Below, in pieces: positions 15,362 to 60,420 of a stretch of 64,000 nt of DNA; within the stretch, counting starts at the first letter, position 1, and every line of letters starts with the position of its first letter. A program made the translations under genes and the position numbers. The DNA is taken from assembly GCF_035084215.1 (NCBI RefSeq), contig NC_090363.1, positions 6,696,001 to 6,760,000 on the forward strand, written 5' to 3'. The stretch is from Heptranchias perlo (taxonomy: Eukaryota). The notes under the pieces are model-generated. The model had not been told where the DNA came from. It ran no database searches and worked only from the letters and a program-made list of their open reading frames with translations.

Positions 15362-15484
15362 GCCTGAGGAAGGAGAAAATCTCCGAAAGCTTGTGAATTT
15401 AAAATAAAATTGCTGGACTATAACTTGGTGTTGTAAAATTGTTTACAATTGTCAACCCCAGTCCATCACCGGCATCTCCACATC
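15362..15484 (+). mobile_element. Penelope-like element terminal fragment with a hammerhead motif
   Basis: CTGAGGA-hairpin-GAAAGCTT...AATAAA...GGACTATAACTTGGTGTTG, flanked by an ATACCTTT direct repeat (15354, 15485). Confidence 0.7.
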
Positions 15485-15552
15485 ATACCTTTTCCTAACA
15501 GAGGGTGCTGGTAATTTTCCTCTCTCCCACTGTGCATTTAGCCCAAGTATTT

Positions 15553-15747
15553 GGAAATTTTCCTGCCACGTCCTCATTTCCCTTTCACACCCTCCCCCCC
15601 CCACCTCAGTGGCCAACCTCTGAGCCAATAGCAGCGGAGCGGGCCCTTCTGACCAATCGCAGCGGGAGGGATGGAACCCGTGGCATTGTGACGTAGGTGA
15701 GAGCCGTCCAATGGCAAAGGGAGGGCGGGGCCAGGCTAGGGCATAAA
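15553..15747 (+). promoter_or_regulatory. IER3 copy 1 promoter
   Basis: kB-like GGAAATTTTCC at 15553, CCAAT at 15625, 15653 and 15708, CRE-like TGACGTA at 15689, GC box at 15723, CATAAA at 15742. Confidence 0.65.
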
Positions 15748-15795
15748 GGGAGCGCGGGATGGCGACTTGTCATTCATTCACAAATTTGCAACACC

Positions 15796-16002
15796 ATGGA
15801 TGTAATTTACACTACAAGCGCTATGTCCTTCAGCAGGGGTTGCGATCTGAGCCAGCGGGCTAGCTCGGAGCGGCGGACCACCGGATTCATCGGCCGCAAG
15901 CCTACAATGCCCCAGATCTTCACTTTCGAGCCGATCCGGGAAAATAAGAGACCCAACCGACGCAAGAGAAGATCCCTTAAAGTTCTCTATCCACCCCACC
16001 AG
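15796..16002 (+). CDS. ier3: IER3/IEX-1-like copy 1, exon 1 (gene 15796-16414, 165 aa)
   Basis: Kozak ACACCATGG at 15796. Encodes MDVIYTTSAMSFSRGC...PQIFTFEPI...RKRRSLKVLYPPHQ, matching the human IER3 motifs EIFTFDPL and RKRSRRVLYP. Donor CAG|GTACAA at 16002/3, phase 0. A second Met at 15823 (MSFSRGC) aligns with human MCHSRSC. Confidence 0.88.
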
Positions 16003-16123
16003 GTACAAATCTGCCAATGTTGCTGCAAAAACTAGTTCACGTTGATTATATTTCAAACTTTTTATAAAGCAATATCTCTCTCTCGTTTTTAACATGCTCC
16101 ATCTATCTTCTCTCTCTCTCCAG

Positions 16124-16414
16124 GTGAGGAGGTCCCTTCCTACCGAGAAGGACATGGCCAAGAGGCTGCTCCTGTTTTTAATCTCCGTTGTCCTCATCCA
16201 GGTGTACGGCGCCGTGGAAGACGAGCTCAGCCTCTCCTCTCCGGACCTGAGCGCTGCGACGCAAGTCTCGGCGTCTAGCCCGGCCCCTTCGGGCTTCTCC
16301 GCCACCGCCGTGCTCCTCGACACGTCCCCGGGAGCTGAAGCCAACTGCACCCAACAGCCTGCAGGAGGGGACTCGCTACAGGCGACCGGAGTCGTCCGAT
16401 CCTGCAGGATGTGA
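16124..16414 (+). CDS. ier3: IER3-like copy 1, exon 2
   Basis: Polypyrimidine tract plus CAG acceptor at 16121-16123 (121-nt intron). Encodes VRRSLPTEKDMAKRLLLFLISVVLIQVYGAVEDE, compared with human [33 protein letters not shown] (hydrophobic segment). Stop TGA ends at 16414. Confidence 0.9.
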   Translation: MRRSLPTEKDMAKRLLLFLISVVLIQVYGAVEDELSLSSPDLSAATQVSASSPAPSGFSATAVLLDTSPGAEANCTQQPAGGDSLQATGVVRSCRM

Positions 16415-17030
16415 ACTGCGAAATGATTAAATCGTCTATTTATTTAATTTTTTGGTCCCCCCCCCCTCCCCCGGGGGAAGGGTGAGAACTGTCTCCAGCA
16501 TAAACTGACCAGAGCTCAAAACACTGTTATTGCCTATAACAAGTGGACGGAAATATGATGAACACAGCAGTGAAGTCTGACTCTAAATTTCCAGAGACTT
16601 AAAGGGGTGGGAGCTGAAGTGTTTTCAGCTTCAGTGAAAGACATATTTTTCCAGTTGTAGTAATATGTAAAACTACTGTATTCTGCCGTGGATTCCCCAA
16701 TACCAATGACCTTACATGCAATATTGCTGCTTCGTTCGTAGTGGTTGTTACTAATATATGTGGGGAGCTTATTTAAGGTTTATCTATTTTATTTATCATA
16801 TTTATGGAAGTGTTTAATTTATACTATTTAATATGTAGAGGACTTATTTTCGAAGTAAGTCTTCCTTTTACACAGTCTGTGTCGAAGATCTCACCTTGCA
16901 GTGGGACTTGAAAACTCACTTTGTAACAAAGTCTGAGGTTGTTAGTGGATCAGCCAGTCGTTGCAATGCAGGGTGTCTCATCCATTTGATGCTAGTATGT
17001 TCTGTGAACAATTATTTGGTGAAATAAAAA
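16415..17030 (+). promoter_or_regulatory. IER3 copy 1 3' UTR with AU-rich elements, CDE hairpin and poly(A) signal
   Basis: Repeated TATTTA motifs (16437-16446, 16769-16831), TGTTC-TGT-GAACA hairpin at 16998-17010, AATAAA at 17023. Confidence 0.7.
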
Positions 17031-17368
17031 CATTTAAAAAATAAAAAAAACTAACCTTGAAAGAAAACTCTGATGGTGTTTTTCTATCTCCTGTGGCCAA
17101 ATAACATCTCGTGTTTCTAGCTTAGAGTTGGCGTCTTCCATTTAAAAAAAAACCCTTACTTTATATTTGAGTACTGCTAAGTCATAGGGGGTGAAATTGG
17201 ACATGGGCGGGGGATGCAAACAGGCAGAATTGCTTTAGCTGCCTGTTACACCACACAGCCAATATTCAGTGCTTTTGAAGTCCCTTTCTTATCTTCCTTT
17301 CTTGCACCCTTCTCTGATTTGCCCCAATCTTCCTTCACCAGCTCTCGTAGACAAACTCCCCAGACCAT

Positions 17369-17606
17369 GGGGGTGATTATAACCCCCAAGAACGGGTGGG
17401 TTGGGGGCGTGCGGGACTTGAAAATAATTGGGGGTTTTTTGGGTTGCAACTGCAAAATTTTCAAACTTTGAATTCCCAGTGGGAAGCCTGTCCTTTTACA
17501 CGCCCAAGTTGAACCCAGAAATAAAGCCGGGTTGCGGTCGCGACCCCAAAAAACAACTATTTTCAACTCCCACCTGCCCGTTCTTGGGGTTTGAAATCAC
17601 CCCCCC
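17369..17606. mobile_element. MITE-like element with long terminal inverted repeats
   Basis: GGGGGTGATTATAACCCCCAAGAACGGG at one end and CCCGTTCTTGGGGTTTGAAATCACCCCCC at the other. Confidence 0.8.
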
Positions 17607-20600
17607 ATGTGTTTGCTTGTTTTCTTGGCTTCATAGGAAATCTGTAGCCTGACCTCTGACCCATGCCTGGCCTGGGGGGTTGGCCATCAGGGCTGCCAAT
17701 TATTATTCACTATCATACTAGGTTACAGCACAGAAGGCGGCCATTCGGCCCATTGTGCTTGTTATGTCTTTTTGAAAGAGCTATCCAATCAGTCCCATAG
17801 CTCTGTATATTTTCCCCTTGAAGTATTAATCTAATTCCCTTTTGAATGTTACTATTGAATCTGCTTCCACTACCGTTTCAGGCAGCGCATTCCAGATCAT
17901 AACCGCTCTGCATTAAAAAAATGTTTCCTCATCGCCTCTGGTTCTTTTGCCAATCAATTTAAATCTGTGTCCACTGGTTACCGACCCTTCTGCCACTGGA
18001 AACTGTTTCTCCTTATTTGAACACCTCTATCAAATCTCCTCTTAACCTTCTCTGCTCTAAGGAGAACAGGTCCAGTCTCTCCACATAACCGAAATCCCTT
18101 ATCCCTGGTATCATTCTAGTAAATCTCCTCTGCACCCTCTAAGGCCTTGACATCCTTCCTAAAGTGCAGTGCCCAGAATCGAACATAATACTCCAGCTGA
18201 GGCCAAACCAGTGTTTTATAAAGGCTTGGCATAAATTCCTTGCTTTTTACTCTATGCCTCTATTAATAAAGCCCAGAATCCCGTGTGCTTTTTTAACAGC
18301 CTTCTCAACTGTTCCTGCCACCTTCGAAGATTTGTGTACATACACCCCCAGATCTCTCTGTTCCTGATCCCCTTTAAAATTGTACCATTGCCTCTCTTCA
18401 TTCTTCCTACCAAAATGTATCACTTCACACCTTGCGTTAAATTTCGTCTGCCACGTGTCTGCCCATTTCACCAGTCTGTCTATGTCCTCCTGAAGTCTGT
18501 TACTATCCTCCACATTGGCTACCACTTCTCCCTGGTTGGAGGAGGGCGGGGGTGGAGGGGTCCCTGGGAACTATCTCCTGCAGTTCGCAAATGAATAGCA
18601 CATTCCAATCCCTAATGTCCAAATGTTTGCTGGAATGTACTTCAACAAATCTCGGTTGTTTCAAACAATCTGGAATTATCTCGCTGTAACATACATCCTC
18701 CCACCTCATTTTAGGCCGCTGTGGGGAGATTTCAACCCCTTGTGAGCTAAACTTAATAGTAACATATTAATTACAATCATACCAATATTCTGACACTGCA
18801 AAATACTTAAGAATCCTGATACGTGACAACGCACAAGGTCATAGCTGAGCTTGTAAGGCGAGGCGTTACCCATCCATTGGACATAAGTAATCATAACCAT
18901 GACAAAGGTAACGTATCAGTGCAGATTATTGCCAAATGCTTAACCGTCGTTTGACCGGTGTGACTGCATTTCTCAGGCTATTCAAATCACCGGGGACAAA
19001 TGTTTGAGGGTTGGTGAAGCAATGGTTCATACCAAGTCAGGACACTTGCTAATATAATCCGCAAGCACCGCGGGCAAGTCCCATTGATACACCTGTATGC
19101 TATGCGAAATATTTAAGGAGAATTTCTTTTAAAGTACCGTTGACTCATGTATGAGGCTCAGGCACCTGTGTGAGTTATGTGGCACCGTCAAGTGACTCAT
19201 TTAAAACAGCGAACAGTCTGAACGCATTCAAAGTCAGTCGACCACATTAAGTATAATGTAAAAGCAAGATTTGCACCTTCAAGGTCGGTATGCCTGTATT
19301 TTCCTCAACGATGCAGGTTTGAGAAAAGTTAAAAATATTTTTAAAACACGAGGTAATCCACAATTGCCAGCCCTGTGTAAAAATAATCTGCTCTGAGGGA
19401 GAGATAAAGGACTATACCTTTATATGGCACCTTATCATGTCTGTCTCCTTTAAATGGATTAGATCATGAGGACAGGTTGCACAGACTAGGCTTGTATTCC
19501 CTTGAGTATAGAGGTTTAAGGGGTGATCTAATTGAGGTGTTTAAGATAATTAAAGGAGATCATGGGGTAGATAGAGAGAGAAACTGTTTCCTCTGATGGG
19601 GGAGTCCATAACAAGGGGGCATAACCTTAAAATTAGAGCTAGGCCATTCAGGGGTGATGGCAACGAAACTATCAGTGGGGGAGCGTAACAGGCAGCAGAT
19701 TCGATACTGTCTGTCTTGCACTACCAAGACGAATTTCTAACCCCAAGATCTTGCCAACAGTCCTCCATGCTCCGAGCTCTCTGGTTTCAATCTGTCCTTC
19801 AGGAAGTACAAGTCCCTATGAGGGGGGGCCTGATTGAGGTAGCACGGAGGAGAGCAGTGCGGTTGTCAGCAGCACCCCTCGTGACCGATGGGCCGATTCC
19901 CAAAAGCCCTGGCTGAAGGGGGCTGATTTGACGTGTGCGCTGCCCCTCTGGCAACTGAAGACTCCCACTCCTCTGATTTCCTCAACACTGCATGGTCCTC
20001 TGGCCCCCGGACGAGGGAAGGAAAGTCAACAGTCGAAGGTAAGTGTGACTGGAGACAACGTGATCATCTGTTCGAAAGCTAATCTCTGTGCACCGGACAT
20101 TTAGTTTGCATTTAAGGGGTTGAACATGATTGAACGGAGTTAGTATTTGTGGTTAATCCAAAGGAGCCAACAGTTCCAAGAGATGTTGATTCAGTGGATC
20201 ACGCTGGAGAATTTCCAAAAACCCTAAGACCCCACTGACTGTTTGTACTTTTCTATTATGTTTCCTACTTTTTGTTTGCTCAGCAAGGTGAAGGATGTTA
20301 GTATTGAGGAATAGAGCACTTTCCATTACAGGGAACACTGTCAGCATCAATCACTCTGGGGTCAGGTATAGCACGCTTAGATACAGAGTTTGGATCCCTT
20401 TACACTATCCCATCAAACACTGCCAGGTCAGGTACAGGATAAATATGGAGAAACTATTTCCTCTGGTGTGGGGAATCAAGAACAAGGGGACATAATCTTA
20501 AAAGTAGAGTGAAATCAGGAAGCACATCTCCACACAAATGGGTAGTGGAAATCTGGAATTACCTCCCTCAACAGGCTGTGGATGCTGGGACAATTGGAGC

Positions 20601-23410
20601 TTTCAAGACTGAGATTGATAGATTTTTATTAGGTAAGGGTATCAAAGGATATGGAGTACAGGCAGGTACATGGAGTTGAGGTATAAATCAACCATGATCT
20701 AATTGAATGTCAGAGCAGACTCCAGGGGCTGAATAGGAACAGGAGGAGACCAATGTGGGCATGTTACTACAGTACAGGTTAGATGCAGAGTAATGGATCA
20801 TACTATTGTGAGATGTGCAATGGCTTGATTTCAATTACATTCCTTTCTTAACAGAAAGTCAAATATGGAAAACTCTGCAGGCTCCAAAACCAATAGCTTA
20901 TGAATGCTTAATGTGATTGTCTGACATTCTCCTCGCTCTGCTGCTTTAGCAGAGGTGTTAAAACCATCTATTTTAAACTGGTTAATGCCTCCACTAAAAT
21001 AGCAGACAGTGAAATTCCAAATGACCATATTAAGTGTCCGCACACTGGAATCCCAGGGGACAGTCTCTTCCATCCTCACTTTAGTTAAATTAAGTCATGT
21101 AAAATTCTGCTTAGTTGTTCGTGATTCTACCTTGCTAACATAAAGCTTTTCTTTTTTTGCTGTCTCGTGGGAACAAAGTTAATGCTCAAAGCAATGATTA
21201 TTTATTAGCCAAATGCAAGAATCCAGAATGATAGCACCAGGAGGCCTACATAACAGATGCGTGGGCACGTGCGCATGTGTGTGAGAGAAAAATCCAAATA
21301 TGGACATTTTTGTGTTGTTAGTGTTTTGTATATATTATACAATGACACACTAAAGCCTAGAAATAACTACAGGCATTATTATTGGACAAATGTTTAATAT
21401 GTTCCAACAACATTCGCATTTCTGCTAATTTAAAAGAAGCGCTCAAATATTTCTAGGCTGTGGTGATTAATGTTAACTGGATTTTGTTCTGAATGTTAAG
21501 ACAACAGATCAGAACAGCTCTCTTTGCCGAAGCTTCTTTAACATGAGTTTTAATCAGGTTCAGGACAAATTGCTGTTGTTTTCTCCAATGTAAGTGGCCA
21601 TTGAAATTGATAATCAGTGCTTTTATGTTGCTGTTTCAGTTTTGGTAAATAGCAGCTGCCCAGTGCTATCCGTATTTATATTTCCACGTGGTGCAATTCT
21701 CCACTGGATTGCGGCTCGCAAATCCGGTGACGGTTTACAAGGCTTGTGTGTCTCCACCGCCACTGGGAGTGTCAGCCGAGATTTTGTGCTCAAGTCTCTG
21801 GAGTGGGGGTTGAACCCACGACCTTGTGACTCAGAGGCGAGAGTGTGGTCACAATCGCGTAACACATTCATACTCATTCCCCTGTCCGCTATTTTAGCAG
21901 ATAGCACGCGTAAAAGGCCAGGAAAAGAACAACTGGTCTGTCCAGACGGGCACCATTAAGGCGTGATTCCCCCTCCCCCAGTTATGAATCTCCTGGGAGA
22001 GGCAAAAGAACGGAAAGAAAAATTTTAGACCAATTTAGTGAGAAGCTCTGGTAAATTCCACTCTGACCCTGAGGGTGATCTTGCAAAGCTCCAGGAGACC
22101 GCAGTCCATTGTATTCCTGTCATCTTCCCTTTCTACACCACAACAGTCTGTAAAGAGATGAAAAAGGACAGGGAATATCAGCATTAATGCATTTGAAATA
22201 AATGAGTCAATGCCTACATTAAAGTAGGAGGCAGAGGAAGGTCAAATGACGAAGTTATGTGTTCATCTGCTAATATGTATAACCTTGAAATTATACACTT
22301 AAAAGCTTTGCTGCCTTCAAAGGAATGTCGGGGCAAAGTTGGCAGTAGGACAAAACGGGTGATAGCGAACTGGCAGCCCATTTTATACCCTGCCTGGCTT
22401 TCTTTTCATTGACTTCGATGGGAAGGAAAATCGGGCAGGGTCTAAAACAGGCTGGGCCTGATGGGCCGAACGGCCTCCTTCTGTGCCGTAAATTCCTACG
22501 ATTTCTCGGCTGCCGCTTTGCTATGGCCCGTTTTTTTTTAAAACTGACCAGGACAAATTTCACCCTCAGCATCTTGCAGCGGTGGAAGGTGGGGAGCTGT
22601 TCGAGGGATTGTGGGGTAGAAATTCGTGTTGGGCGCGAGCGCTAAACGGCCGCCCGCGGGGCGTATAACGGGCGGCCGGTACCACACCGCCTGTTCTGCG
22701 TTAGCGCCCAAAGTGAATTTCTGCCCCTGTGTGTCTTAAACTGGCAAGATGGCTTTTTCTGTCACAGAAAAGGCTGTCCAAGCAGATTGACCTTTGACTT
22801 TCTATACTCCAAGTACGCAAATATTACCGTCTGCTCTGAAGTACTTGGAATCAGGTTACTGCAGTTGTGGCTTATTCCTTATGCTTCACTAATGTTTAAT
22901 TTGCAAATAATTATCACTGTCGTTTCACCTTGTACTAGTCTGGTCCTGCATTCGGTATTTCCTCTTTCCAAGTAGACTGAAGGAGTGGTGGAAATCTTAA
23001 GTAAAGTGCTGGCTGAGCTCAGTTGTGAATGATCTTACCTCTGAGTCAGAAGGTTACGGGTCTAATCCACACCAACGCAGCACCCCCTTAGTCTAGATTA
23101 TGTGCTCAAGCCTTGGAGCAGGGCTCGATCCCCACAACCTTCTAACTCAGGGGTGCGAGTGCTGAGGGAATACGTCGAATTACATCGAATGTACAGCACA
23201 GAATCAGGCCATTCGGCCCAACTGGTCCATGCCGGTGTTTATACTCCACATGAGCCTCCTCCCACCCTACTTCATCGAACGCTATCAACATAACCCTCTA
23301 TTCTTTTCTTCCTCCTGTGTTTATCCAGCTTTCCCTTAATGCTATTCGCCTCAACCATTCCCTGTGGTAGCGAGTTCCACATTCTAACCACTCTTTGGGT
23401 AAATACGTTT

Positions 23411-23863
23411 AGAATCATAGAAGTTTACAACATGGAAACAGGCCCTTCGGCCCAACATGTCCATGTCGCCCAGTTTATACCACTAAGCTAGTCTCAGTTG
23501 CCTGCACTTGGCCCATATCCCTCTATACCCATCTTACCCATGTAACTGTCCAAATGCTTTTTAAAAGACAAAATTGTACCCGCCTCTACTACTGCCTCTG
23601 GCATCTCGTTCCAGACACTCACCACCCTTTGAGTGAAAAAATAGCCCCTCTGGACCCTTTTGTATCTCTCCCCTCTCTCCTGAAATCTATGCCCCCTCGA
23701 TATAGACTCCCCTACCTTTGGGAAAAGATTTTGACTATCTACCTTATCTATGCCCCTCATTATTTTATAGACTTCTATAAAATCACCCCTAAACCTCCTA
23801 CTCTCCAGGGAAAAAAGTCTCAGTCTATCCAACCTCTCCCTATAAGTCAAACCATCAAGTCCT
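23411..23863 (-). mobile_element. CR1 3' fragment, same subfamily as 61288-62433
   Basis: Near-identical translation (TYRERLDRL...KHLDSYMGKMG). It interrupts an older LINE 3' fragment. Confidence 0.85.
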
Positions 23864-25729
23864 GAGATTGGATTTATTAGTGACTATCTTTTATTTATGG
23901 CCCCTAGTTTTGGTCTCCCCCATAAGTGGAAATATTTTCTCTACCCCATCAAACCCATTCATAACCTTAAATAACTCTATCAGGTCACCGTCAGTCTTCT
24001 CTTTTCTAGTCTGCAGGTTAGACGTGGCCCTATTCTGGTGATTCAGGCCGAAATTAAAGATCCCTTGAAACTATTTGAAGGAGAGCAGGGAGTTCTCGCG
24101 GTGTCTTCAATAACATTTCCCCTCAGCAGCTGTTTGTGCGCAAAATATAATGAAAAGCAAGAAGCTATAAAGCTAAAGAAAAAAAATCATGAAAAGTTTT
24201 GATAGAGTAAATAAGGAGAAACTGTTTTACACTGGCAGGAGGGTCGGTAACCAGAGGCAAGATGAGGAGACATTCTTTTACGCGGCGAACTGACGCGATC
24301 TGGAAATCGCTGCCTGAAAGGGCGGTGGGAGCAGATTCAATAGTAACTTTCAAAAGGGACTTGGATAAATACTTGAAGGGGAAAAATTTACGGAGCTATG
24401 GGGAAAGGGCAGGTGTGTGAGAGTAATTGGGTAGCTCTTTCAAAGAGCCGGCATAGGCATGATGGGCCGAATGGCCTTGTTCTGTGCTGTATCATTCTGT
24501 GATTACATTAATTTGCAATTTTTCCTTCTTTACCAAATACCTCTGCAGCAGTACATTAACTTTCCTAAGTTGTTCTGTTTAAATTCCAGCCTTCAATTCA
24601 AAACCTCCTTACAAGCCTGAATGCGTGTACAATTCATTCTGCAGTTGTTTTTGGAATCTTGTCTTAGAAATTATACAAAATGCATCTGGAATGCGCTACA
24701 AAACACAAATAAAAATTCCAACATTTCAAAGTGTCCCTGTAAATGTTTCCACTTCAAGGATTTACGCAAGTCCCCCTTTGAAAGTTACTATTGAATCTGC
24801 TTCTACCGCCATTTCAGGCAGTGCATTCCAGATCATAACAACACGCTGCGTTAAAAAAAAATGTCTCTCCATCTCACTTCTGGTTACCAACCCTTCTGCC
24901 ACTGGAAAAAGTTTCTCCTTATCTACTCTATCAAAAAGCACTTCCATTTATAAAGTGCCTTATCATCGTCCGCAGGATTTCTCAGTAATAGGCTGCTGGT
25001 GATTGGAGAATGAGGGGTGGTCTGACCGAGGGGTGATCTGATCCCACCATGCACCCTCCGTAAACTTGAGCTCAGCTGAAAACTCTGCTGTTGGTATCCT
25101 ACTTCGCACCAAGGCGCTTCATAGGAGCGGTTATCAAATGAAATTTGACACCGAGCCACATAAGCAGATCTAGGAAAGCTTAGTCAAAGAGATAGGTTTT
25201 AAGGAGCATCTTAAAGGAGGAGAGAGAGGTAGAGATGCAGGAAGGTTTATGGAGGGAATTTCAGAGCTTAGGGCTTCGGCAACTGAAGGCACGGTCGCCA
25301 ATGATGGAGCGTTGGGGATGCGCAAGAGGCCAGAATTGGAGGAGCGCAGAGATCTCAGATGGTTGTAGGGCTGGAGGAGGTTACAGAGATAGGGAGAGGG
25401 TGAGGCCATGGATGCATTCGAAAAAAAAAGGGTAAAAATTTTAAAATCGAGGCGTTGCCGGACCGGGAGCCAATGTAGGTCAGTGAGCACAGGGGCTGAT
25501 GAGTGAATGGGACTTGGTGTGAATTAGGATACGGGCAGCAGAGTTATGGATGAGCTCAAATTATTAGTAATTAGAAGGTGATGCAATGCCCATGAAAGAG
25601 GGAGTGACAGAATTACAGATTTCTCTCCCTGATTACAGGTGATGGAATCAGTCTCACAACAAACCCATCTGCTCCTCTTCAATCTTCTGTACACCAGTGG
25701 GAGTTGTTATAAGCTGAATAGCCCAGTAG

Positions 25730-25915
25730 TGAAGGGGAGAATACTAGAGCTTGGTCTTCAGTTGCTTCCAAGCCTTTATTCGCAGAGCTCCACATTACAC
25801 ACCCCACACCCTAGATAAGCTCTTTTATATATGGATGCACGCGAGCCCCAGTTGATAGACACCACCTGAATACAATTAACACTAATTGATATAAATCACA
25901 TGGATACAATTAACA
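25730..25915 (-). mobile_element. Possible solo LTR
   Basis: TG...CA ends, minus-strand TATA-like and AATAAA motifs, and an imperfect 4-bp flanking repeat (GTAG/GGAG). Confidence 0.3.
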
Positions 25916-26411
25916 GGAGTGACCCCGGTCTTATGCTGTGAGTGACCGACCAATTGCCAATCATCCTTCTTTCGGGAGAGTGCCACTAGTAAGTTTCAAA
26001 TTGACCCTCCTAAATTTAAAAAAAAACTTACATTGCAGGAATTATTTAGAAGAATGTAAAAAAACCACTGCAGCGAAAAGCAAAACTATTTGCTCCTGCA
26101 ATAAAAACTTCTGCGAAGGACCAATTGGACAGAACCTCCTTGATCCACACACGCTGGCTGAGCTGGTGAGCATTTCCAACATTAGAACCATAGAATCTTA
26201 CAGCACAGAAGGGGGGCCATTCGGCCCATCGTGCCTGTGCCAGCTCTTTGAAAGGTCTATCCAATTAGTCCCTCTCCCCCTGCTCTTTCCCCATGGCTCT
26301 TACATGCTCTGTTTTTATTTCAGATTTGCAGCATTTTGCTTTTTGTCCCACTGGGCTCCAAATCCAAGTGAATTTTTGCACCCCAAAAAAACTCACCCAA
26401 CTCAGGTTTAG

Positions 26412-26551
26412 CCAATCAACGCACAGGGGAGGCGGGGCTCGGTGTCATCTGCCATTTGCTGGCAGGGAGAAGGCGGGGCATTCGATGATTGACGTCCCCG
26501 CTAACCAATCACCAGCTCGCTGGCGTCCGCCAATCACCCAGGTGTATAAAA
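26412..26551 (+). promoter_or_regulatory. IER3 copy 2 promoter
   Basis: CCAAT at 26412, 26505 and 26530, GC boxes, CRE-like TGACGTC at 26490, TATAAAA at 26545. Confidence 0.7.
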
Positions 26552-26633
26552 GGAGTCGGTGCCGCAGTGATGTCTTCATATCCCTGACCAGCGAGTTTGA
26601 AGGCGGTTCCCAGTGCAGTGGCCCGAGAGACCG

Positions 26634-26813
26634 ATGTATTCTGCAGTCGCCCCCATCAGTCTGCCGCTCCCCCGCTCAACGGGGAAGCTTTACAGCCTCG
26701 ACAGCCGGAGGCACACCGAACCCGAGGTCTTCACCTTCGAGCCGATCCCAGAGCCCAAACACGGGTACAGACCCAAGAAGCGGCCACTTAAAGTCCTTTA
26801 TCCAATTCACCGA
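26634..26813 (+). CDS. ier3: IER3-like copy 2, exon 1 (gene 26634-28543, about 200 aa)
   Basis: ATG at 26634 lies downstream of TATAAAA. Encodes MYSAVAP...EPEVFTFEPIPEPKHGYRPKKRPLKVLYPIHR. Donor CGA|GTAAGG at 26813/4, phase 0. Confidence 0.85.
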
Positions 26814-26864
26814 GTAAGGATCCTGCTGCTTTAGTGCAGAGGCTAGAGAAATATAGTTTAGATT

Positions 26865-27882
26865 TGTTGTTGATTCTAGAGAAATAATTTAGTTTGATTT
26901 TGATTCTGGAGAAATTTAATTTGATTTTGATTCTGGAGAATCATAATTTAGTTTGATTTTGATTCTGGAGAAACATAATTTAGTTTGATTTTGATTCTGG
27001 AGAAATTTAATTTGATTTTGATTCTGGAGAATCATAATTTAGTTTGATTTTGATTCTGGAGAAACATAATTTAGTTTGATTTTTGATTCTGGAGAATCAT
27101 AATTTAGTTTGATTTTTGATTCTGGAGAATCATAATTTAGTTTGATTTTGATTCTGGAGAATCATAATTTAGTTTGATTTTGATTCTGGAGAATCATAAT
27201 TTAGTTTGATTTTGATTCTGGAGAATCATAATTTAGTTTGATTTTGATTCTGGAGAATCATAATTTAGTTTGATTTTGATTCTGGAGAATCATAATTTAG
27301 TTTGATTTTGATTCTGGAGAATCATAATTTAGTTTGATTTTAGTTTCTGGAGAATCATAATTTAGGTTGATTTTGATTCTGGAGAAACATAATTTAGGTT
27401 GATTTTTGATTCTGGAAAATCATAATTTAGGTTGATTTTTGATTCTGGAAAATCATAATTTAGGTTGATTTTTGATTCTGGAGAATCATAATTTAGGTTG
27501 ATTTTTGATTCTGGAGAATCATAATTTAGGTTGATTTTTGATTCTGGAAAATCATAATTTAGGTTGATTTTTGATTCTGGAGAAACATAATTTAGGTTGA
27601 TTTTTGATTCTGGAAAATCATAATTTAGGTTGATTTTTGATTCTGGAGAAACATAATTTAGGTTGATTTTTGATTCTGGAAAATCATAATTTAGGTTGAT
27701 TTTTGATTCTGGAAAATCATAATTTAGGTTGATTTTTGATTCTGGAAAATCATAATTTAGGTTGATTTTTGATTCTGGAAAATCATAATTTAGGTTGATT
27801 TTTGATTCTGGAGAATCATAATTTAGGTTGATTTTTGATTCTGGAGAATCATAATTTAGGTTGATTTTTGATTCTGGAGAAA
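26865..27882. repeat. About 32-34-bp AT-rich minisatellite in the intron of IER3 copy 2
   Basis: Unit GATTCTGGAGAATCATAATTTAG(T/G)TTGATTTT(T), about 30 copies. Confidence 0.95.
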
Positions 27883-27886
27883 TACA

Positions 27887-28001
27887 CTGGGTAATTTTAA
27901 CCTAACTTGCCAGGCGGGAATCCCACAGGATTAAGTGGAAAGCTGGTTTTACACCCTGCCCAATATTACTCTCCGGGCAGGTTAGGTTAAAAGTGTCCCA
28001 G
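27887..28001. mobile_element. MITE-like element in the IER3 copy 2 intron
   Basis: TIRs CTGGGTAATTTTAACCTAAC and GTTAGGTTAAAAGTGTCCCAG. A longer relative lies at 48445-48635 and a half copy at 62723-62815. Confidence 0.75.
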
Positions 28002-28120
28002 TAGTTTTAGGTTGGTTGTGATTTGGAAATAACAAACTCCTGTAGAAATCCAGTGTTTGAAGATTGCTGCCAAGGATCGCCCGTTAACCAGATTTTTATC
28101 TTGTATTTTTGGTTCCGCAG

Positions 28121-28543
28121 CCTCGGAGGGCCCTCCCTGCCAAGAAGGACATGACCAAGAGGCTGTTCCTGCTTCTCGTTTCCATCGTTGCCTTCCAGGT
28201 GTACAGCGCCACGGAGCAGTGTGAAGATGAGCCGAGTCTGGTCTCCGAGGGAATGGAGCCAGAAATGAGGAGTGAACTCGCCCATCCTATTGAGGCATTT
28301 TGGATGTCTGATTCTGCTGCCCTCCCGGCTCCTGCCTCCCCGCGAGGAGAACGGGCCAATTCCACGTTGTTTCTATCCGACGTCCACCTCACACAGACGC
28401 TCGAGGGGCGGATTTTCAACTTAACTGAAGTCTGTGGGCATTTAGAAATCGGGCGGTTTCTGTGCGGGGCGATCATGACGCCTGCTTTACATTCGGTCGG
28501 TAAGTTGAAAGTCTCCCCCCACCTGTGCGAAAGCAGCGATTGA
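28121..28543 (+). CDS. ier3: IER3-like copy 2, exon 2
   Basis: Acceptor tttttggttccgcag ends at 28120 (1307-nt intron). Encodes PRRALPAKKDMTKRLFLLLVSIVAFQVYSATEQCEDE..., homologous to exon 2 of the other copies but with a longer C-terminus. Confidence 0.85.
   Translation, partial: PRRALPAKKDMTKRLFLLLVSIVAFQVYSATEQCEDEPSLVSEGMEPEMRSELAHPIEAFWMSDSAALPAPASPRGERANSTLFLSDVHLTQTLEGRIFNLTEVCGHLEIGRFLCGAIMTPALHSVGKLKVSPHLCESSD
28405..28519. mobile_element. MITE-like inverted repeat inside IER3 copy 2 exon 2
   Basis: GGGGCGGATTTTCAACTTA at one end and TAAGTTGAAAGTCTCCCCC at the other. Confidence 0.6.
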
Positions 28544-29179
28544 GCGCTGGGGTTTGGATCGAGCGGCTCATTCTACCGAGCATGCGTCACCGCAGTTTTC
28601 TGAGCGGTTTACAACCCCGAGCGGCTCCTCACTTGGGCTCGTTGACGCCCAGGAGCGATGAGGGCCTCAAGACATGAAGGAGAACTGAGTTTTCAAACAA
28701 TTCGCAGAACAAAAATGCTCCAGGACTGCATGTCGAGATTGTAAAATAGGGCCGAATATATTGTCTTCTGCAGTTAGTGTTGAATTGCCAACAAATGAAG
28801 AATTTTATTGAATGGAAATTGCTAGTATTTGCATTCTGATTGCTAGCAAATGTGTAGGTTATTTAATTTATTCATATTTGGAATATTTTTGCCTTGAAAT
28901 ATTTCAAGTTATTTATTCTTGTGACTCGTCGTGTAATATTTTGTCCGATTTACTTTTAGGTGGGGGTGTTTTTCCAGAATTTTGGTTATATGGGGTGAGA
29001 TCAACTGTCAGGGAACCCATGCTATTTAAGATGATCTAACACTCTATTGATAATGGATAATCAGGAAACTTCAGGTTTGCATTGACAAACCGCTTGGGAA
29101 GGAACTAAATATATAAGGGGATAGATTAGCATCTTCACTACCTGGGTGGTAATCTGTTACAGCACTGACTTCATGTCCA

Positions 29180-29560
29180 CCTTGGCTCAATCAGCAGCAC
29201 TCTTGCCTCTGAATCAGAAGGTTGTGGATTCAAGTCCCACCGCAGGCACAAAATCTAGGCCTGACGCTCCAGTGCTGCACTGTTGGGGAGAGCCATCTTT
29301 CACATGAGACATTAGACCGAGGCCCCGTCTGCCCCCTCGGGTGTACGTAAAAGATCCAAAGGCACTATTTTGAAGAGCAGGAGAGTTTCCCCCCCCCCCC
29401 CCCCCCCCCCGGTCTCCTGGCCAATGTTTTTCCCTCAACCAACATCACTAAAACAGATTATCTGGTCATTATGTTTGTGGGATCTTGCTGTGCGCAAATT
29501 GGCGGCCGGGTCTCCTACATCATAAGTGACTATACTTCAAAAGCATTTCATTGGTTGTTA
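29180..29560 (+). mobile_element. tRNA-derived SINE with a Deu-like core
   Basis: tRNA-like head (TGGCTCA...GGATTCAAGTCCCAC) and core ATGAGAC..TA.ACCGAGGCCCCGTCTGCCC. Other copies lie at 1825-2145, 2468-2790(-), 31505-32050, 34020-34195(-), 37190-37395 and 49180-49330(-). Confidence 0.7.
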
Positions 29561-32500
29561 CATAGTCCACAATATAGAAACAGGCCATTCGGCCCAACTT
29601 GTCGATGTCGGTGTTTATGCTCCACACGAGCCTTCCACCCCTTTTCATCTCACTCTATCAGCATATCCTTCTATTCCTTTCTCCATGTGCTTATCTAACT
29701 TTCCCTTAATTGCAGAAGGGGATGTCCTGAGGTCATGAAAGGTGCCATATAAATGCAAGTTATTTCCTTTCTTTCTTTAATAGAGCCATGGAGAGGAAAC
29801 GAGGCAAAGGGATGAGGGAGGGTTCCATATAGAGTAGATGTTCCCCACCACCAGGCAATGAAGATGAAAATCTGTTGCAACATTTTAAGTAAATGCCTAC
29901 AGCTGCCTTCAAAGTATTTATGGTAAAACGGGCTGCTGTAACCTCTGACCATGAAACTAGGTGCAGCCATGGGTGAAGCTGCGTTCTACCTTGAGGTCTC
30001 TCCTTAGATGCAAACTGGAGGGTTCATGGTGTCAGAAGTGTGCTGCCTGCAGAACCGCAGTTTGCGGAGGCTGAGGTTCTGGGTTTTAATGGGACTAGCC
30101 CTAACTCTGAACTTTAGTGCTCCGATGGAGATAATTGTGGAATTTTTCATAATTTCATGTTAATTTATCAAAATGATTTAATTTATTGTCATATTTAAAT
30201 GTATTTATTTTTCGATGGCCTCTTTATTGTATTTGAAATCTTTGTATTTAAATTTTGGAGTTAATGTATTTGACAGATGTGATGGCCAAGGGCAGGAATT
30301 ACCCTTGGTGAAGTTCATCTCTAAATGCTTAAGGTGCTTGTACTATATTTCTGCGTGCACAACCTTTAAACCTGGCTTTAACATGCCTATTTTAAAAATG
30401 TCTTAAATGTTTCCCTACAGTGACTGCACTTTAAAAGTGCTTAATTGACTGAAGCGCCTTGGTACGTCCTGAGGTTGTGAGAGGTTGCTATATAAATGCT
30501 GCTTTCTTTCATACACAGGGGTGCAGTACAAGCACATGGAGCATTCCTGCATGAACTTTCCAAATTTCATCCTACCTCCCGCCCATCCCCATCTCATCTC
30601 CCTGCTGCAGCTTACTTGAGAAAGTTCAGCAGCCCGAGGGATTGGGGTGGGACTAGCCAGTCTCATCACTTCACGATCTGAATGATCAACAGGTTTGACA
30701 CTGGTGTTGCCTGTGTGGAGTTAAGGGGTTGGAGATCGAAATATTTGATTTGAAGTCGTGCCTTTTCACATGGTTTGTTATGTTATCAAGTGGCTTAACG
30801 TCAAGACAGAATGTTGTGATGCAATAAAAACTCTTATTTATTAAAGTAGCCGTAATAGTTATTCATTGGATGCATTTTTGCTGGGAGATTTCCTCTTTTT
30901 AAACACAAAACAACTTATGAAGCCAGTGTGAGTCATAACGTGAACTCTCTTGGGGCCATTAGCCCGAAGATTGTTTACTTGATTGAGCAGATGACCACGC
31001 ATTGAACAACCCAAATGGCTAGGAAAACATCCCATAATCCAGCACAGATGCCCCTCGTCTAGACCACAAAACTCTCACCAAAGCGAACGATTCAAACCCA
31101 TTTTTTTATTAAGAGAAAGCTGGAAATCTGACATTGAAAACCATGCTGGAAATACACAGCGGTGTCGAAAATCGCCTTGGTCGATAACACAAAATGGGCA
31201 GGATTGCATTGGCCGCCTATTATTCTCCCCGCTCTTTATTCAGATCCATTGCGGTCAGCGGAATTGAGTATCAGGCTGGACATACCTGAGGGAAGGTTTT
31301 CTGCTTCTGTGCTCCCCTTTAAAATGAGCAGGTGAAAAATCATAAGCCGGGGAGTATGGATTCAGATCAGCCATGGTCTAATTGAATGGTGGAACAGGCT
31401 TGAGGGGCTGAATGGCCTGTTCTTGTGTTCCTGTGTAATAAGTGACCAGCACCATAACTCAACATCAGGTGTGAATGTATCAAATGATACATGATCTAAC
31501 CCTGGTGCCATGGCTCAGTGGTAGCTCTCTTGCTCTGCATCAGAAGGTTGTAGGTTCAAGTCCCACTCCAGATACTTAAGATAAGAACGTAAGAAATAGG
31601 AGCAGGAGTTGGCCATATGGCCCCTCAAGCCTGCTCTGCCATTTAATAAGATCCTGGTTGCCCTTTGCCCTCAGACTTTCCTGTCTGATCCCCGATTCCC
31701 TTGAGCACATAATCTAGGCTGACGCTCCCTGTGCAGTAATGAGGGAGTGCTGCACTGTCAGAGGTGCCGTCCTTTGGATGAGACGTTCAATTGTCTGCCC
31801 TCACAGGTAAAAGATCCCGTGGCATTTTTTCGAAGACGAGCAGGGGAGTTCTCGCTGGTGTCCTGGCCAATACTTATCCCTCAATCAACATCACTAATCT
31901 GGTCATTATCACATTGATGTTTGTGGGATCCTGCTGTGTGCAAATTGGTTGCTGTGTTTCCTACATTACAACAGTGTCTACACTTCAAAAGTATTTAATT
32001 GGCTGTAAAGTGATTTGGGACATCCAGAGGACATGAAAAGTGCAAGTCTTTTTCTCATGGTGGTGAATAACTCCTACTGGGTGGCAGGGGGCTAAAACAG
32101 AAAGTCCAGAGGCTGCTAAATAATTCTCACAAATAAAACACGTTCCACACACCTGCAACCCCCTCAACATCACATCAGTCTCGTATGGAGTCCGACTGAT
32201 TTGGTTACAAAGATTGCCACTGAATCTGCTTCATGAAATGGGTCCTCAGCTCATCTGCTAAATGATTTGTTTTGACTGGGAGGCAGGAAATCAATGGCAA
32301 AGATCACAGGTTTTCAGCAAAAATGGACAGATCACAGAATGCAATTCCCCAAAAACATTGGCACAAATCCAAAGCAATAAAACTAGAATTACGCTCAGTC
32401 ACAGTGGGCCAGACCGTAAAGAAACATCATAAAATGTCTTTTAATAATAACATTTACATAGATAATTCCTTATTACCTTGCCAAAACATCCTAAAGTACT

Positions 32501-33489
32501 TCAGGAAATGAAGTACTTTGAAGTGTGCTGCCTGTTATGGGGGCAAATATAGTAGCTAATTTTTGCACAGCAAGATCCCACATTCAGTAATGATAACCAG
32601 TTAATCAGGAGTGTGGTGGAATACTCTCCACTTGCCCCGATGGCTGCAGCTGCAGCAACACTCAAAAAGCTCAACACTCAGGACAAAGCAGCCCATCCAC
32701 CACCCTAAACATTCACTCCCTTCACCATCGGCGCACCGTGGCTGCAGTTTGTACTATCTACAGGGCACACTGCAACAACTCGCCAAGGCTTCTTCGGCAG
32801 CCACCTCCCAAACCCACGACCTTTTAGAAGGACAAGGGCAGCAGGTACATGGGAACAACACCACCTCCAAGTTCCCCTCCAAGTCACACACCATCCCCAC
32901 TTGGAACTCGCGACCTCTACCACCTAGAAGGACAAGGGCAGCAGGCACATGGGAACACCACCACATGCATGTTCCCCTCCAAGTCACACACCATCCCGAC
33001 TTGGAAATATATCGCCGTTCCTTCATCGCCGCTGGGTCAAAATCCTGGAACTCCCTACCTAACAGCGCTGTGGGAGAACCTTCACCACACGGACTGCAGC
33101 GGTTCAAGAAGGCGGCTCATCACCACCTTCTCAAGGGCAATTAGGGATGGGCAATAAATGCCGGCCTCGCCAGCGACGCCCATACCCCCAGAATGACTGT
33201 TTAAAAATCTATTTTTTGGGGGGAAGGAGTGGGGGGGGGGGGAATGCTGCTTGAGGGAGCAATCTTGGACATTATCCAATTTCTGCCCTTCCAATAGTGA
33301 CACGGGTTCCATAGAAAATCAGGCAAAGGGGAATATTCAGGTTTAGCGTCTCACCCAAAGGACTGATTCAGTCGGTCCTTTGGTTCCAAAGTGCGTTCGT
33401 TTGTGTAACGTGGACAGTTTCAAATGAATAGGATACGAACGAGATGAGAATGCGGGGCTCCTGTCTCCTCTTGACCAAACCCCGTGAGT

Positions 33490-33750
33490 GGGACATTTTC
33501 TACGAATTTTACGTTTCGGAAATTTCATCTGCGTCCAGACACCAATCCAATCCGGCCAATCGGGTAACTGAAATGGGGTGGGACTTCTCATGGGTACCAA
33601 TGAAAGTGCAAGGATACCATCAGCCCCGGGTAGGGGGCTGGACCTGTCCAACCCACCAGGAATGGTACAAAGAGGGGAGGAAGCGGCGGAGGAGCGAGCA
33701 CATCTGAGGCTTGGGGCAGGGTCGACGCTCACCTGTGTGGCTTAAAATCC
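33490..33750 (+). promoter_or_regulatory. IER3 copy 3 promoter
   Basis: kB-like GGGACATTTTC at about 33490 and GGAAATTTC at about 33518, clustered CCAAT boxes at 33542-33600. No canonical TATA box. Confidence 0.5.
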
Positions 33751-33782
33751 TGCTTCGTTCCCCCTGGTTAAACGATACCATC

Positions 33783-33938
33783 ATGTGTCTGGCGAGAACC
33801 TGCGTCGGTTCCACCGGCTTCCCCGGCCACTCCAGCCGGAGTCAGCCTTTGGTTTTCACCTTCGAGTCCATCCCGGAGCGCGTACCCAAAATCCGAGTCA
33901 AGAAGCGATCTCGGCGAGTCCTCTATCCCCCTCATCAG
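33783..33938 (+). CDS. ier3: IER3-like copy 3, exon 1 (gene 33783-34685, 148 aa)
   Basis: Encodes MCLARTCVG...VFTFESIPERVPKIRVKKRSRRVLYPPHQ, the closest of the three to human MCHSRSC...KRSRRVLYP. Donor CAG|GTACAT at 33938/9, phase 0. Confidence 0.9.
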
Positions 33939-34394
33939 GTACATGTCTTGCCCATTTTAACAAAGAAAGAGCTTTCATATATATATATATATAGGGGTAT
34001 ATATATATATAGAGAGAGAGAGCCTTTCAGGACGTCCCAACGCGATTTACAGCCAATTAAGTATTTTTTTTTGAAGAGCAGTCACTGTTGTAATGGGGCG
34101 GCCAATTTGCGCACAGCAAGATCCCACAAGCTGCAAGAATGACCAGATCGTCTGTTCTTAACGGTGTTGGTTGAGGATAAATATTGGCCCAGGATAAACA
34201 GTTGGCTATTCAGAAAACTCTTTTTTTGCAATTAAAGTTGTATCCCACTATAATTATTAAATGACATTTCCAAAATTAGATGTATATTTTAGGGAATTTT
34301 ATTGGTTATAAGAGTAGCTTTAGTCATTACAATTATATCAGTGTGGATCTCTCGTTTTTAACATGCTCTATCTATCTTCTCTCTCTCTCTCCAG

Positions 34395-34685
34395 GTGAGA
34401 AGGTCCCTTCCTACCGAGAAGGACATGGCCAAGAGGCTGCTCCTGTTTTTAATCTCCGTTGTCCTCATCCAGGTGTACGGCGCCGTGGAAGACGAGCTCA
34501 GCCTCTCCTCTCCGGACCTGAGCGCTGCGACGCAAGTCTCGGCGTCTAGCCCGGCCCCTTCGGGCTTCTCCGCCTCCGCCGTGCTCCTCGACACGTCCCC
34601 GGGAGCTGAAGCCAACTGCACCCAACAGCCTGCAGGAGGGGACTCGCTACAGGCGACCGGAGTCGTCCGATCCTGCAGGATGTGA
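34395..34685 (+). CDS. ier3: IER3-like copy 3, exon 2
   Basis: (CT)n-CCAG acceptor ends at 34394 (456-nt intron). The 291-nt coding part differs from copy 1 exon 2 at only 2 positions by eye. Confidence 0.9.
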   Translation: MRRSLPTEKDMAKRLLLFLISVVLIQVYGAVEDELSLSSPDLSAATQVSASSPAPSGFSASAVLLDTSPGAEANCTQQPAGGDSLQATGVVRSCRM

Positions 34686-35300
34686 ACTGCGAAATGGTTC
34701 AATCGTCGATTATTTGTTTTTTTTGTCCCGGGGGGAATCGGTCGAATTTTCTCCAGAGACATTATTAGCGGGTACACATTCCGTGTGACTACTGAGGGAC
34801 CCATCAGTGAAAGACTGAAGCATGTTTTCTACACGTCAGTATTGTGTGTGTGCTGAAGACCCGTTGAAAGCGAACTTGGGACTCGTATCTGAAACCAAAA
34901 GTTGATGTAACGCGTTTGGCGTCTTGCATTCCTTGAGAAATTCAGGACTTTAAATCTATCTGAGTCCAATACTGGTGTTACTTCAGTTAATGTGTTATTT
35001 TGTTTGAGCTAACTAAATGCACTAACAGTTTGCACAAAACGTTTATAATTTAAATATTTATATATTGCATGTTTATTTATACTGTATATGGATGTATTTA
35101 TGTCTTGATTTGTACAAATATGTCTGAACTTACTGGGTAAGTTCCATGTTGATAATCTCCCCCGTTGGGTAGAGCTAGAAAATTCACTTGTACCAAAGTC
35201 TGGGGTTTTTTGGATCAGCCATCCATGTCAATACATGTTTGTCTTTTCTGTACCATTTGTTATGTTCTAGGAACAAAGATTTGCAGCGATTTAAAATAAA
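34686..35300 (+). promoter_or_regulatory. IER3 copy 3 3' UTR with AU-rich elements and poly(A) signal
   Basis: ATTTA cluster at 35045-35102, hairpin TGTTC-TAG-GAACA at 35263-35275, AATAAA at 35295. Confidence 0.65.
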
Positions 35301-52506: not shown

Positions 52507-53201
<695 letters not shown>

Positions 53202-57252: not shown

Positions 57253-57630
57253 ATGCCGGAGAGCGCGACCAAGGTCATCGCCAAGAAAGGCGCCAAGAAA
57301 GCGGCCTCCAAGTCCCACCACAAGGGCGACAAGAAGCGGAGGAAGGCCCGCAAGGAGAGCTACGGCATCTACGTCTACAAGGTGCTGAAGCAGGTGCACC
57401 CGGACACGGGCATCTCCTCCAAGGCCATGAGCATCATGAACTCGTTCGTCAACGACGTCTTCGACCGCATCGCCTGCGAGGCTTCCCGCCTGGCCCACTA
57501 CAGCCGGCGGCACACCATGTCCTCCCGGGAGATCCAGACCGCCGTCCGCCTCCTGGTGCCCGGCGAGCTGGCCAAGCACGCCGTGTCCGAGGGCACCAAG
57601 GCGGTCACCAAGTACACCAGCTCCAAGTGA
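57253..57630 (+). CDS. H2B: Histone H2B, divergent variant
   Basis: 125-aa ORF with [26 protein letters not shown]...[26 protein letters not shown] and octamer-like box upstream, stem-loop downstream. Confidence 0.97.

Positions 57631-59713: not shown

Positions 59714-60420
<707 letters not shown>

Follow-up and report, generated by a model that had tools for sequence, protein, structure and literature searches.

A shark and ray IER3 cluster in Heptranchias perlo: exon-limited conversion between paralogues and a probable torsin-4A-type membrane anchor

Human IER3 (IEX-1) is a much-studied stress gene whose product has been reported in the cytoplasm, the nucleus and mitochondria, and which has neither a Pfam family nor a relative of solved structure. 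What, then, should be made of a locus at which several such genes stand side by side? The 64 000 nucleotides of Heptranchias perlo analysed here (the window; contig NC_090363.1, positions 6 696 001 to 6 760 000) carry three IER3-type genes, labelled c1, c2 and c3 in 5' to 3' order. An original prediction had described them as a tandem array arising from an old, lineage-specific expansion in which the N-termini and the inducing signals had diversified between copies. The explanation that we consider likely is that they belong to an IER3 cluster of sharks and rays, that exon 2 of c1 and c3 has been homogenised by gene conversion, and that the conserved module of these proteins is a membrane anchor of the torsin-4A type. 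The last point should surprise a specialist, the exon-limited conversion adds a new detail, and neither figured in the prediction; by itself the array is a modest result, for it has been annotated before and can be read from a published supplement (PMC10751288).

The gene structures proposed earlier were confirmed, with coordinates (Table 1) and RefSeq identity. All three genes lie on the forward strand, each with two coding exons in open frames and a GT-AG intron of phase 0 placed three codons past the VLYP motif. Their products (165, 200 and 148 amino acids in length) are letter-for-letter identical to XP_067829807.1, XP_067829808.1 and XP_067829809.1 respectively, so the genes were already annotated; the RefSeq name, 'IEX-1-like', is an automatic one only. 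A six-frame hidden Markov model search of the 64 kb recovered the six exons (E 2e-14 to 4e-11; next match E 1.6) and no fourth copy. The assignment to IER3 held: besides the RefSeq names, there were profile matches to turtle and teleost IEX-1 (E 3e-10 and 2e-9), and the three best ESM Atlas clusters were IEX-1 (scores 0.90–0.92). Pfam returned no family for the six exons or the whole proteins, apart from one weak hit below cut-off, and no match to the IER domain of IER2, IER5 and IER5L, of which it presumably holds a model, among the exons at E ≤ 1 or the whole proteins at E ≤ 0.01. A PDB sequence search gave two chance-level matches only (E 0.23 and 0.86), and the Atlas structure matches, obtained from a low-confidence model, all had a template modelling score < 0.4. 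The first exons, said to align only at the FTFE and basic-VLYP blocks, do so mainly, with a few further invariant positions. Exon 1 of c3 reads FTFES in Heptranchias (33855–33872 region), at a place where other c3 proteins shown keep Pro.

Where the shared module comes from was indicated by a profile of five shark proteins run against 1.84 billion representatives. Five of its 90 matches were torsin-like by eye (E 8e-7 to 4e-4); in three of these (P0077, P0087 and P0094) the Pfam Torsin domain (PF06309) immediately follows the matched module, and one of the five bears the name torsin-4A, from an egret. The reverse profile, built from the three Pfam-confirmed torsins, scored 46, 37 and 43 bits on c1, c2 and c3, and reached at least 20 bits (median 40) in 94 of 95 IER3-like proteins (111 less five torsin-type rows and 11 whose module was missed by the pattern). 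Of 1900 controls, in which local shuffling in 6-residue blocks leaves the basic and hydrophobic stretches in place, 26 reached that level (median 5.7, maximum 29). A profile of all five torsin-like proteins gave the same result. Profile–profile alignment with hhalign (98.2%, E 4.8e-14, 73 columns) placed FTF, VLYP, KR, the helix and the following Gln in register. On these sequence comparisons, the conserved FTF-basic-VLYP-transmembrane module of IER3 is very probably homologous to the N-terminal membrane anchor of torsin-4A (TOR4A), an AAA+ ATPase of family PF06309. The two share the whole module, from FTF through the basic stretch, VLYP, KR and the transmembrane segment to Q, and the charge asymmetry around the helix, and differ in what follows: the Torsin AAA+ domain has no Pfam match in the c1, c2 or c3 proteins, which have a short low-complexity tail after the helix instead. 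Given this homology, IER3 proteins would best be read as torsin-4A relatives without the AAA+ domain. This would supply an origin for IER3, make FTF, VLYP, KR and the Gln after the helix candidate key residues, predict a type II membrane topology and render partners shared with TOR4A testable.

The proteins themselves fit such a topology. The best 17-mer has a mean hydropathy of 2.55 in c1, 2.02 in c2 and 2.55 in c3, marking a predicted transmembrane segment, and the net charge is positive before and negative after it in all ten proteins compared (IER3-type and torsin). An N-glycosylation sequon lies downstream of the helix in 33 of the 39 shark and ray proteins, including c1, c2 and c3 of the window. 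This charge asymmetry and the downstream sequon fit a signal anchor with a lumenal tail, so that the N-terminus would face the cytosol or nucleoplasm; a basic, nuclear-localisation-like run precedes VLYP in all three first exons. Two observations speak against carrying the mammalian picture over unchanged: the sequon is absent from six of 12 c3 proteins, and the first exons of c1–c3, though they have many Ser/Thr, contain no Ser/Thr-Pro site, the phosphosite of human IER3 being proline-directed. Mammalian IER3 (IEX-1, gly96) is likewise described as a small protein with a putative transmembrane segment, a glycosylation site and a nuclear-localisation stretch (PMC12025315), and glycosylated and unglycosylated forms of the human protein are on record (PMC3660565).

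How old is the array, and whose is it? Shark and ray proteins came from name-bearing searches plus one profile search, and four first-exon types were assigned by motif before any trees were built. In the exon-1 tree (39 proteins, 58 columns) each type formed a single clade containing both sharks and rays (c1, 99/97; c3, 100/99; c2, 92/92; c4, 86/95). Over the final 40 residues of c1 exon 1, Heptranchias and sawfish share 85% identity; for c1 and c3 in a single species the figure is about 50%. The fourth type is represented in Heptranchias by XP_067829805.1 (180 amino acids), outside the window and apparently on the same chromosome, and other species suggest that the types are co-located (c1, c3 and c4 in Mustelus and Cetorhinus; c2, c3 and c4 in Hemiscyllium; c1 and c3 in Pristis). 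The cluster of sharks and rays thus has at least four members, the count of three holding for the window only. Two c4-type proteins lie apparently on one contig each in Hypanus (P0041/P0118), Hemiscyllium (P0112/P0124) and Stegostoma (P0115/P0070), so that in some species the cluster may hold five genes.

Published gene orders agree. On sawfish chromosome 34, which carries the major histocompatibility complex (MHC), the supplement of Verissimo et al. (2023; PMC10751288), as far as available, lists DDR-like, mannose-receptor-like, H3 (+), H2B (−), H3 (−), three IEX-1-like (−), torsin-4A-like (+), IEX-1-like (+) and flotillin-1-like genes. The window is the mirror image of this in order and strands for the three IEX-1 genes and the H3-H2B-H3 triplet; the first-listed sawfish H3 (411 nt) and H2B (378 nt) equal the window frames in length, and the distal sawfish IEX-1-like copy is compact, as c1 is. 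The main text of that paper contains no occurrence of IER or IEX. The sawfish cluster also matches the FLOT1-IER3-DDR1 neighbourhood of the human MHC class I region (PMC1309616). On reedfish chromosome 1, tubulin beta, flot1, gnl1, a zinc-finger gene and ddr1 stand in a row, and the supplement table of that chromosome lists no IER3-named gene, although a missing annotation is not proof of absence; reedfish ier3 is on paralogon 9 instead, not beside flot1/ddr1. No array of three or four IER3 genes in a bony vertebrate appears in the supplement tables examined, nor do these identify the catshark ier3 neighbours or the elephant-shark c8g/exd3 neighbours, given there as LOC numbers only. No chimaera protein was named among the matches.

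The cluster is therefore an old tandem expansion, ordinary, common to sharks and rays and already annotated, and the N-termini of its members have diverged as had been proposed. 'Lineage-specific' stands at best for sharks and rays together, and not for this species: in a mixed tree with bony vertebrates (49 rows; three of 52 were dropped because the pattern missed their module) a single clade of c1–c3 (approximately unbiased (AU) test, p 0.40) or c1–c4 (p 0.30) was neither recovered nor rejected, which makes a 'shark-and-ray-specific' expansion a tentative reading. Other points weigh against the reading as well. The exon-1 tree carries a long-branch warning where c1 and c3 meet, and the trees rest on 58–83 columns; the window shares with the FLOT1-DDR1 cluster of sawfish only the three-gene order and the histone triplet, and an MHC location is what this shared order would imply. 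Human has one IER3 gene, in line with the single copy stated for mammals, in place of the at least four paralogue types of sharks and rays. Turtles have a second IER3-like type. This divergent type (P0096, P0075, P0091, P0095, P0108 and relatives, one named from box turtle) may be the paralogon-9 copy seen in reedfish. A 522-residue model (P0063) fuses a teleost-type IER3 to DDR1/2 discoidin domains; it is probably a merged gene call, and implies that ier3 lies beside a ddr gene in that fish.

Gene order also bears on the origin of the module. On reedfish chromosome 9 (MHC paralogon 9) torsin-4A-like and ier3 are adjacent on the same strand, flanked by nrarp/exd3 and c8g/grin1a (PMC10751288 supplement, in part). 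The 'torsin-4A-like' row beside the fourth sawfish IEX-1-like gene is so by name only, and is weaker evidence because NCBI also gives this name to a 180-residue c4-type IER3 protein of whale shark and because three species have two c4-type proteins. Human TOR4A lies by NRARP and EXD3 at 9q34. A tentative reading, which we hold to be quite possible, is that IER3 arose as a tandem, partial torsin-4 duplicate lacking the AAA+ part, before the genome duplication behind MHC paralogons 6 and 9; reedfish would then retain the TOR4A-IER3 pair on paralogon 9, as sharks and rays perhaps do in their MHC, and in mammals each of the two paralogons would have retained one of the genes, IER3 or TOR4A. Descent may also have run the opposite way, a torsin gaining an IER3-like head. 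More doubtful is the idea that IER3 acts as a rapidly inducible free copy of the torsin-4A anchor, competing for or recruiting the same partners at endoplasmic reticulum or nuclear-envelope membranes. The homology suggests TOR4A as the true MHC-paralogon relative of IER3, in place of IER5; an early zebrafish survey tabulates ier5 as the zebrafish paralogue of IER3 and did not find IER3 itself (PMC1309616). A search of open full texts, mostly as listings and opening lines of abstracts, found no literature link between IER3 and torsins and none on shark IER3 paralogues, their orthology groups or conversion. Judged from these listings, the four papers mentioning both TOR4A and IER3 were expression or cancer studies and the two pairing torsin with IEX-1 were reviews of lamin A/C and emerin; two torsin papers merely list TOR4A in the parts available (PMC4999309; bioRxiv 10.1101/2025.11.07.687155), and two torsin reviews do not name it (PMC7175109, PMC5425593).

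Separate trees for the two exons tell different stories: exon 1 groups by type, whereas exon 2 groups Heptranchias c1 with c3. The tract responsible runs from the polypyrimidine tract of the intron through the whole of coding exon 2 into the first bases of the 3' untranslated region (3' UTR), with 96.9% identity over 383 nt; in the coding exon 289 of 291 nt are identical, leaving one silent and one Thr/Ser difference, and the copies also differ in CT-repeat length. Just beyond the tract identity drops to 7 of 30. The first exons and promoters of c1 and c3 have diverged and their 3' UTRs keep a gapped remnant of likeness only (c1 16775–17019 versus c3 35038–35284), as would be expected of old duplicates. 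For exon 2, none of 200 bootstrap trees (0%) recovered c1 and c3 as monophyletic types, while support for the Heptranchias c1+c3 pair was 100/98 and c2 and c4 stayed intact; c3 monophyly was rejected with all rows included (p-AU 0.014). We attribute the homogenisation of exon 2 to recent gene conversion. Its direction was probably from c1 to c3, since the tract opens with a c1-type linker: SLPTEKD is found in most c1 proteins, and other c3 proteins have KKKD-, KKD- or TD-type linkers.

Identity between c1 and c3 over the first 50 exon-2 residues is 100, 92, 76, 56, 44 and 36% in the six species with both, and four of these pairs lack a recent tract (Cetorhinus, 76%; Scyliorhinus torazame, 56%; Pristis, 44%; Mustelus, 36%). 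Rejection of c3 monophyly is lost without Heptranchias c3 (p 0.27), or when Heterodontus c3 is also left out (p 0.32), and repeated or older conversion is therefore not demonstrated. A second case is suggested at the protein level in Heterodontus, where c1 and c3 share a 41-residue identical run (at most 17 in cross-species pairs). Two further candidates did not hold: a supposed third case, in lamniform sharks, rested on a 35-residue match that turned out to link two species, the longest run within Cetorhinus being 15, and conversion in the shark stem, read from the exon-2 tree, was unsupported by the AU test.

Sequencing runs offered an independent view. A run search with c3 returned eight runs from one sample, four of DNA and four labelled RNA by guess, and contigs of four of them (X1, DNA; X5, X6 and X7, RNA-like) were aligned to 15400–26840. 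The X1 contigs end at 16138 and restart at 16396; these are the graph ends expected of a two-copy tract, and they support a real one. From the window letters the first contig would end at 16159, and at 16138 if the second copy has the c1 letter at the silent site, which hints at a c3 allele still closer to c1. A c1 allele with another CT-repeat length is an alternative explanation of the break, but the X5 and X6 contig ends favour the two-copy tract.

The same contigs speak to splicing. Several unique intergenic bins are near zero in X5–X7 and at 58–78 in X1, so X5–X7 fit RNA. The c1 splice joint (121 nt skipped, GT-AG) is present in X5 and X7, i.e. two of the three RNA-like runs, and absent from X6 and from X1: c1 is spliced. 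A 1449-nt X7 contig matches 26589–26813 and ends at the c2 donor; its other 1224 letters would extend to 29344 if they ran from exon 2 onward. The RNA-like runs contain 0.64–0.72 of the c3 words (a spliced c3 mRNA should give 0.68, the shared tract by itself 0.17), the DNA runs 0.86–0.89. Moreover, a 531-nt X6 contig joins 226 letters matching nothing in 15400–26840 to the shared exon 2. Its match begins at 16121, where a join to c3 exon 1 would put it; c1 exon 1 or one of the two introns would give a different start. We infer that c2 and c3 are spliced too, so that splicing is not confined to one copy of the array. Exon 1 of c2 is uncovered in X5, X6 and even in the DNA run X1, and exon 1 of c1 in X6; such gaps were not taken as silence. 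Against this reading it must be said that the evidence consists of assembled contigs of a single sample whose RNA label was guessed, from which levels, tissues and stimuli are not derivable, and that the aligned stretch excludes the c3 locus.

Some contigs showed additional features. An X7 contig runs through the c1 intron (15976–16149) at a depth of 456, versus 4157 for the spliced joint, and represents retained intron or pre-mRNA; the read-through frame meets a stop at 16035, ahead of the membrane segment. A low-depth X7 contig (486 nt, depth 4.5) joins 26589–26397 to 22147–21855 on the minus strand across a GTGAGT...polypyrimidine-AG intron, and resembles a spliced antisense transcript arising at the c2 promoter; for human IER3, too, an antisense RNA is described (PMC12619710). 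Exon 2 of c1 and of c3 starts CAG|GTGAG (16121–16129 and 34392–34400), with a donor-like sequence right after the acceptor. Cross-gene splicing among c1–c3 would stay in frame, all introns being of phase 0, and no such joint was seen within 15400–26840.

Could the two novel elements be spurious? An assembly or polishing artefact would account for a c1/c3 identity that is as short and as sharply bounded as this one, and the DNA runs possibly derive from the same sample as the window assembly, with the c3 flanks outside the aligned stretch; yet the copies differ at two coding sites and in CT-repeat length, read-derived DNA contigs branch at the tract ends, the RNA contig of the shared exon 2 is roughly twice as deep as that of the c1 3' UTR (310 versus 158 in X5; 301 versus 154 in X6), X6 joins exon 2 to letters foreign to c1, and most c3 words occur in the DNA runs. 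We regard such an artefact as extremely improbable. Scarcely more credible is that a basic stretch and a hydrophobic helix arose twice, making the IER3/torsin-4A likeness convergent: the module is short and compositionally biased, the torsins were first found through the IER3 profile itself, and a search of the ESM Atlas with the torsin-4A segment gave no usable match and one with c1 no torsin cluster, but compositional bias of this kind is what the block-shuffled controls preserve, and they rarely reach the scores of the real proteins, while the register of the hhalign alignment and the neighbouring reedfish genes also favour common descent.

The alternatives on history and function deserve more weight. 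The array might be ancestral to jawed vertebrates, bony lineages having kept different members, so that mammalian IER3 and fish ier3 would be hidden paralogues and there would be no shark-ray expansion. The mixed tree weakly groups c2 and c4 with a coelacanth protein (87/91) and a teleost group (84/77), apart from c1+c3 (98/86), and the two turtle types and the position of reedfish ier3 away from flot1/ddr1 point the same way; set against them, the single clades of c1–c3 and c1–c4 were not rejected, a 100-row quick tree joined c1–c3 with one sturgeon protein (Shimodaira–Hasegawa support 85), and the supplement tables consulted show no comparable array in bony vertebrates. On balance we find an ancestral array somewhat unlikely. 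Slightly less plausible still is that c1 and c3 are redundant dosage copies whose first exons and promoters drift, with no signal-specific roles. The homogenised exon 2 would suit dosage, as would the similar c1 and c3 contig depth in X5 and X6 (contig depth being a poor measure of expression) and the status of c3 as the faster-evolving type in rays. However, the first exons were already distinct before sharks and rays parted and have stayed so, each resembling its counterpart in other species more than it does the other copy, and the conversion ends at the intron and at the 3' UTR.

We therefore favour an old shark and ray cluster whose members divide their work. The window would hold the downstream part of an IER3/IEX-1 cluster in the framework region of the shark MHC, produced by tandem duplication in an ancestor common to sharks and rays, each gene encoding a small, presumably single-pass membrane protein. 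Exon 1 would contribute the cytosol- or nucleus-facing N-terminus with the FTF motif and basic stretch, a putative interacting surface, and exon 2 the membrane anchor and a tail that is little conserved and in most cases carries a glycosylation sequon. With c3 exon 2 homogenised with that of c1, these two genes would present two different 'heads' on one anchor and tail, and first exons and promoters that have stayed distinct would suit copies that divide expression and N-terminal partners among them. The cluster amounts to a natural experiment, in that promoter, N-terminus and 3' UTR are nearly all that sets c1 apart from c3. Exon-limited concerted evolution is familiar from tandem families such as opsin, globin and protocadherin clusters, which likewise show short homogenised tracts between old paralogues with diverged flanks; the present tract differs in spanning one whole coding exon plus the splice acceptor and in skipping the middle copy. 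Mammalian IER3 is described as a direct NF-kB target that feeds back negatively on NF-kB and ERK through PP2A-B56 and mitochondrial IF1 (PMC6404175, PMC3660565, as far as available). Rapid inducible expression and feedback on ERK/PP2A and NF-kB may be expected of the shark genes by mammalian analogy, from which they depart in the absence of exact kappaB sites and first-exon Ser/Thr-Pro sites and in the exon-2 conversion between copies.

Table 1. Features of the window (positions counted from its first letter).
Feature	Position	Strand	Remarks
c1 proximal promoter	15625..15747	+	CCAAT x3, TGACGT 15689, GC box 15723, CATAAA 15742; motif matches only
c1 exon 1, coding	15796..16002	+	69 codons; FTF motif, basic stretch, VLYP; start of RefSeq XP_067829807.1
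c1 intron	16003..16123	+	121 nt, GT-AG, phase 0; splice joint in runs X5 and X7
c1 exon 2, coding	16124..16414	+	predicted transmembrane segment, acidic Ser/Pro-rich tail, N-x-T sequon
c1 3' UTR	16415..17045	+	AU-rich motifs, AATAAA at 17023 and 17040; X5 and X6 contigs reach about 17000
c2 proximal promoter	26412..26551	+	CCAAT x3, 2 GC boxes, TGACGT 26490, TATAAAA 26545; motif matches only
c2 exon 1, coding	26634..26813	+	60 codons; X7 contig ends at donor
c2 intron	26814..28120	+	1307 nt, GT-AG, phase 0; mostly 33-bp tandem array
c2 exon 2, coding	28121..28543	+	predicted transmembrane segment, longer tail, two sequons; 100% match to RefSeq XP_067829808.1
c3 proximal promoter	33542..33601	+	CCAAT x4 only
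c3 exon 1, coding	33783..33938	+	52 codons; RefSeq XP_067829809.1
c3 intron	33939..34394	+	456 nt, GT-AG, phase 0; last ~47 nt inside converted tract
c3 exon 2, coding	34395..34685	+	nearly the same as c1 exon 2
c3 3' UTR	34686..35300	+	AU-rich motifs, AATAAA at 35295
Gene-conversion tract	c1 16079..16459; c3 34348..34729	+	polypyrimidine tract, whole coding exon 2, first 3' UTR bases
Histone H3	52791..53201	+	411-nt frame
Histone H2B	57253..57630	+	378-nt frame
Histone H3	59714..60124	-	411-nt frame

Promoter motifs, claimed for each gene, are unevenly distributed. CCAAT boxes precede all three copies (at least three per 260 bp occur in five of 245 window bins, at least four in two of 245), and no TATA, GC box or TGACGT was found in the c3 promoter. 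Alignments of the promoters with one another gave chance-level scores only (19–22). No exact kappaB consensus lies near c1, c2 or c3; one-mismatch sites are present near all three. The make-up of the putative promoters thus differs among copies, and such motif matches are unable to show different inducing signals. The predicted AU-rich 3' regions were borne out, with motifs in all three copies that would be consistent with immediate-early-type transcripts; the 3' region of c2 has neither AATAAA nor ATTAAA within 1.25 kb.

The remaining window is mostly retrotransposon fragments and tandem repeats, plus histone genes at 52.8–60.1 kb. A 33-bp minisatellite of about 32 copies (26846–27882) makes up most of the c2 intron, and another, with a 29-bp unit repeated 69 times, lies upstream of c1 (12418–14416). 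An Rfam scan had the histone stem-loop as its sole match. The H3, H2B and H3 genes are of the replication type with 3' stem-loops, and the two H3 genes, identical at 409 of 411 positions, lie within a 983-bp inverted repeat (91.7%).

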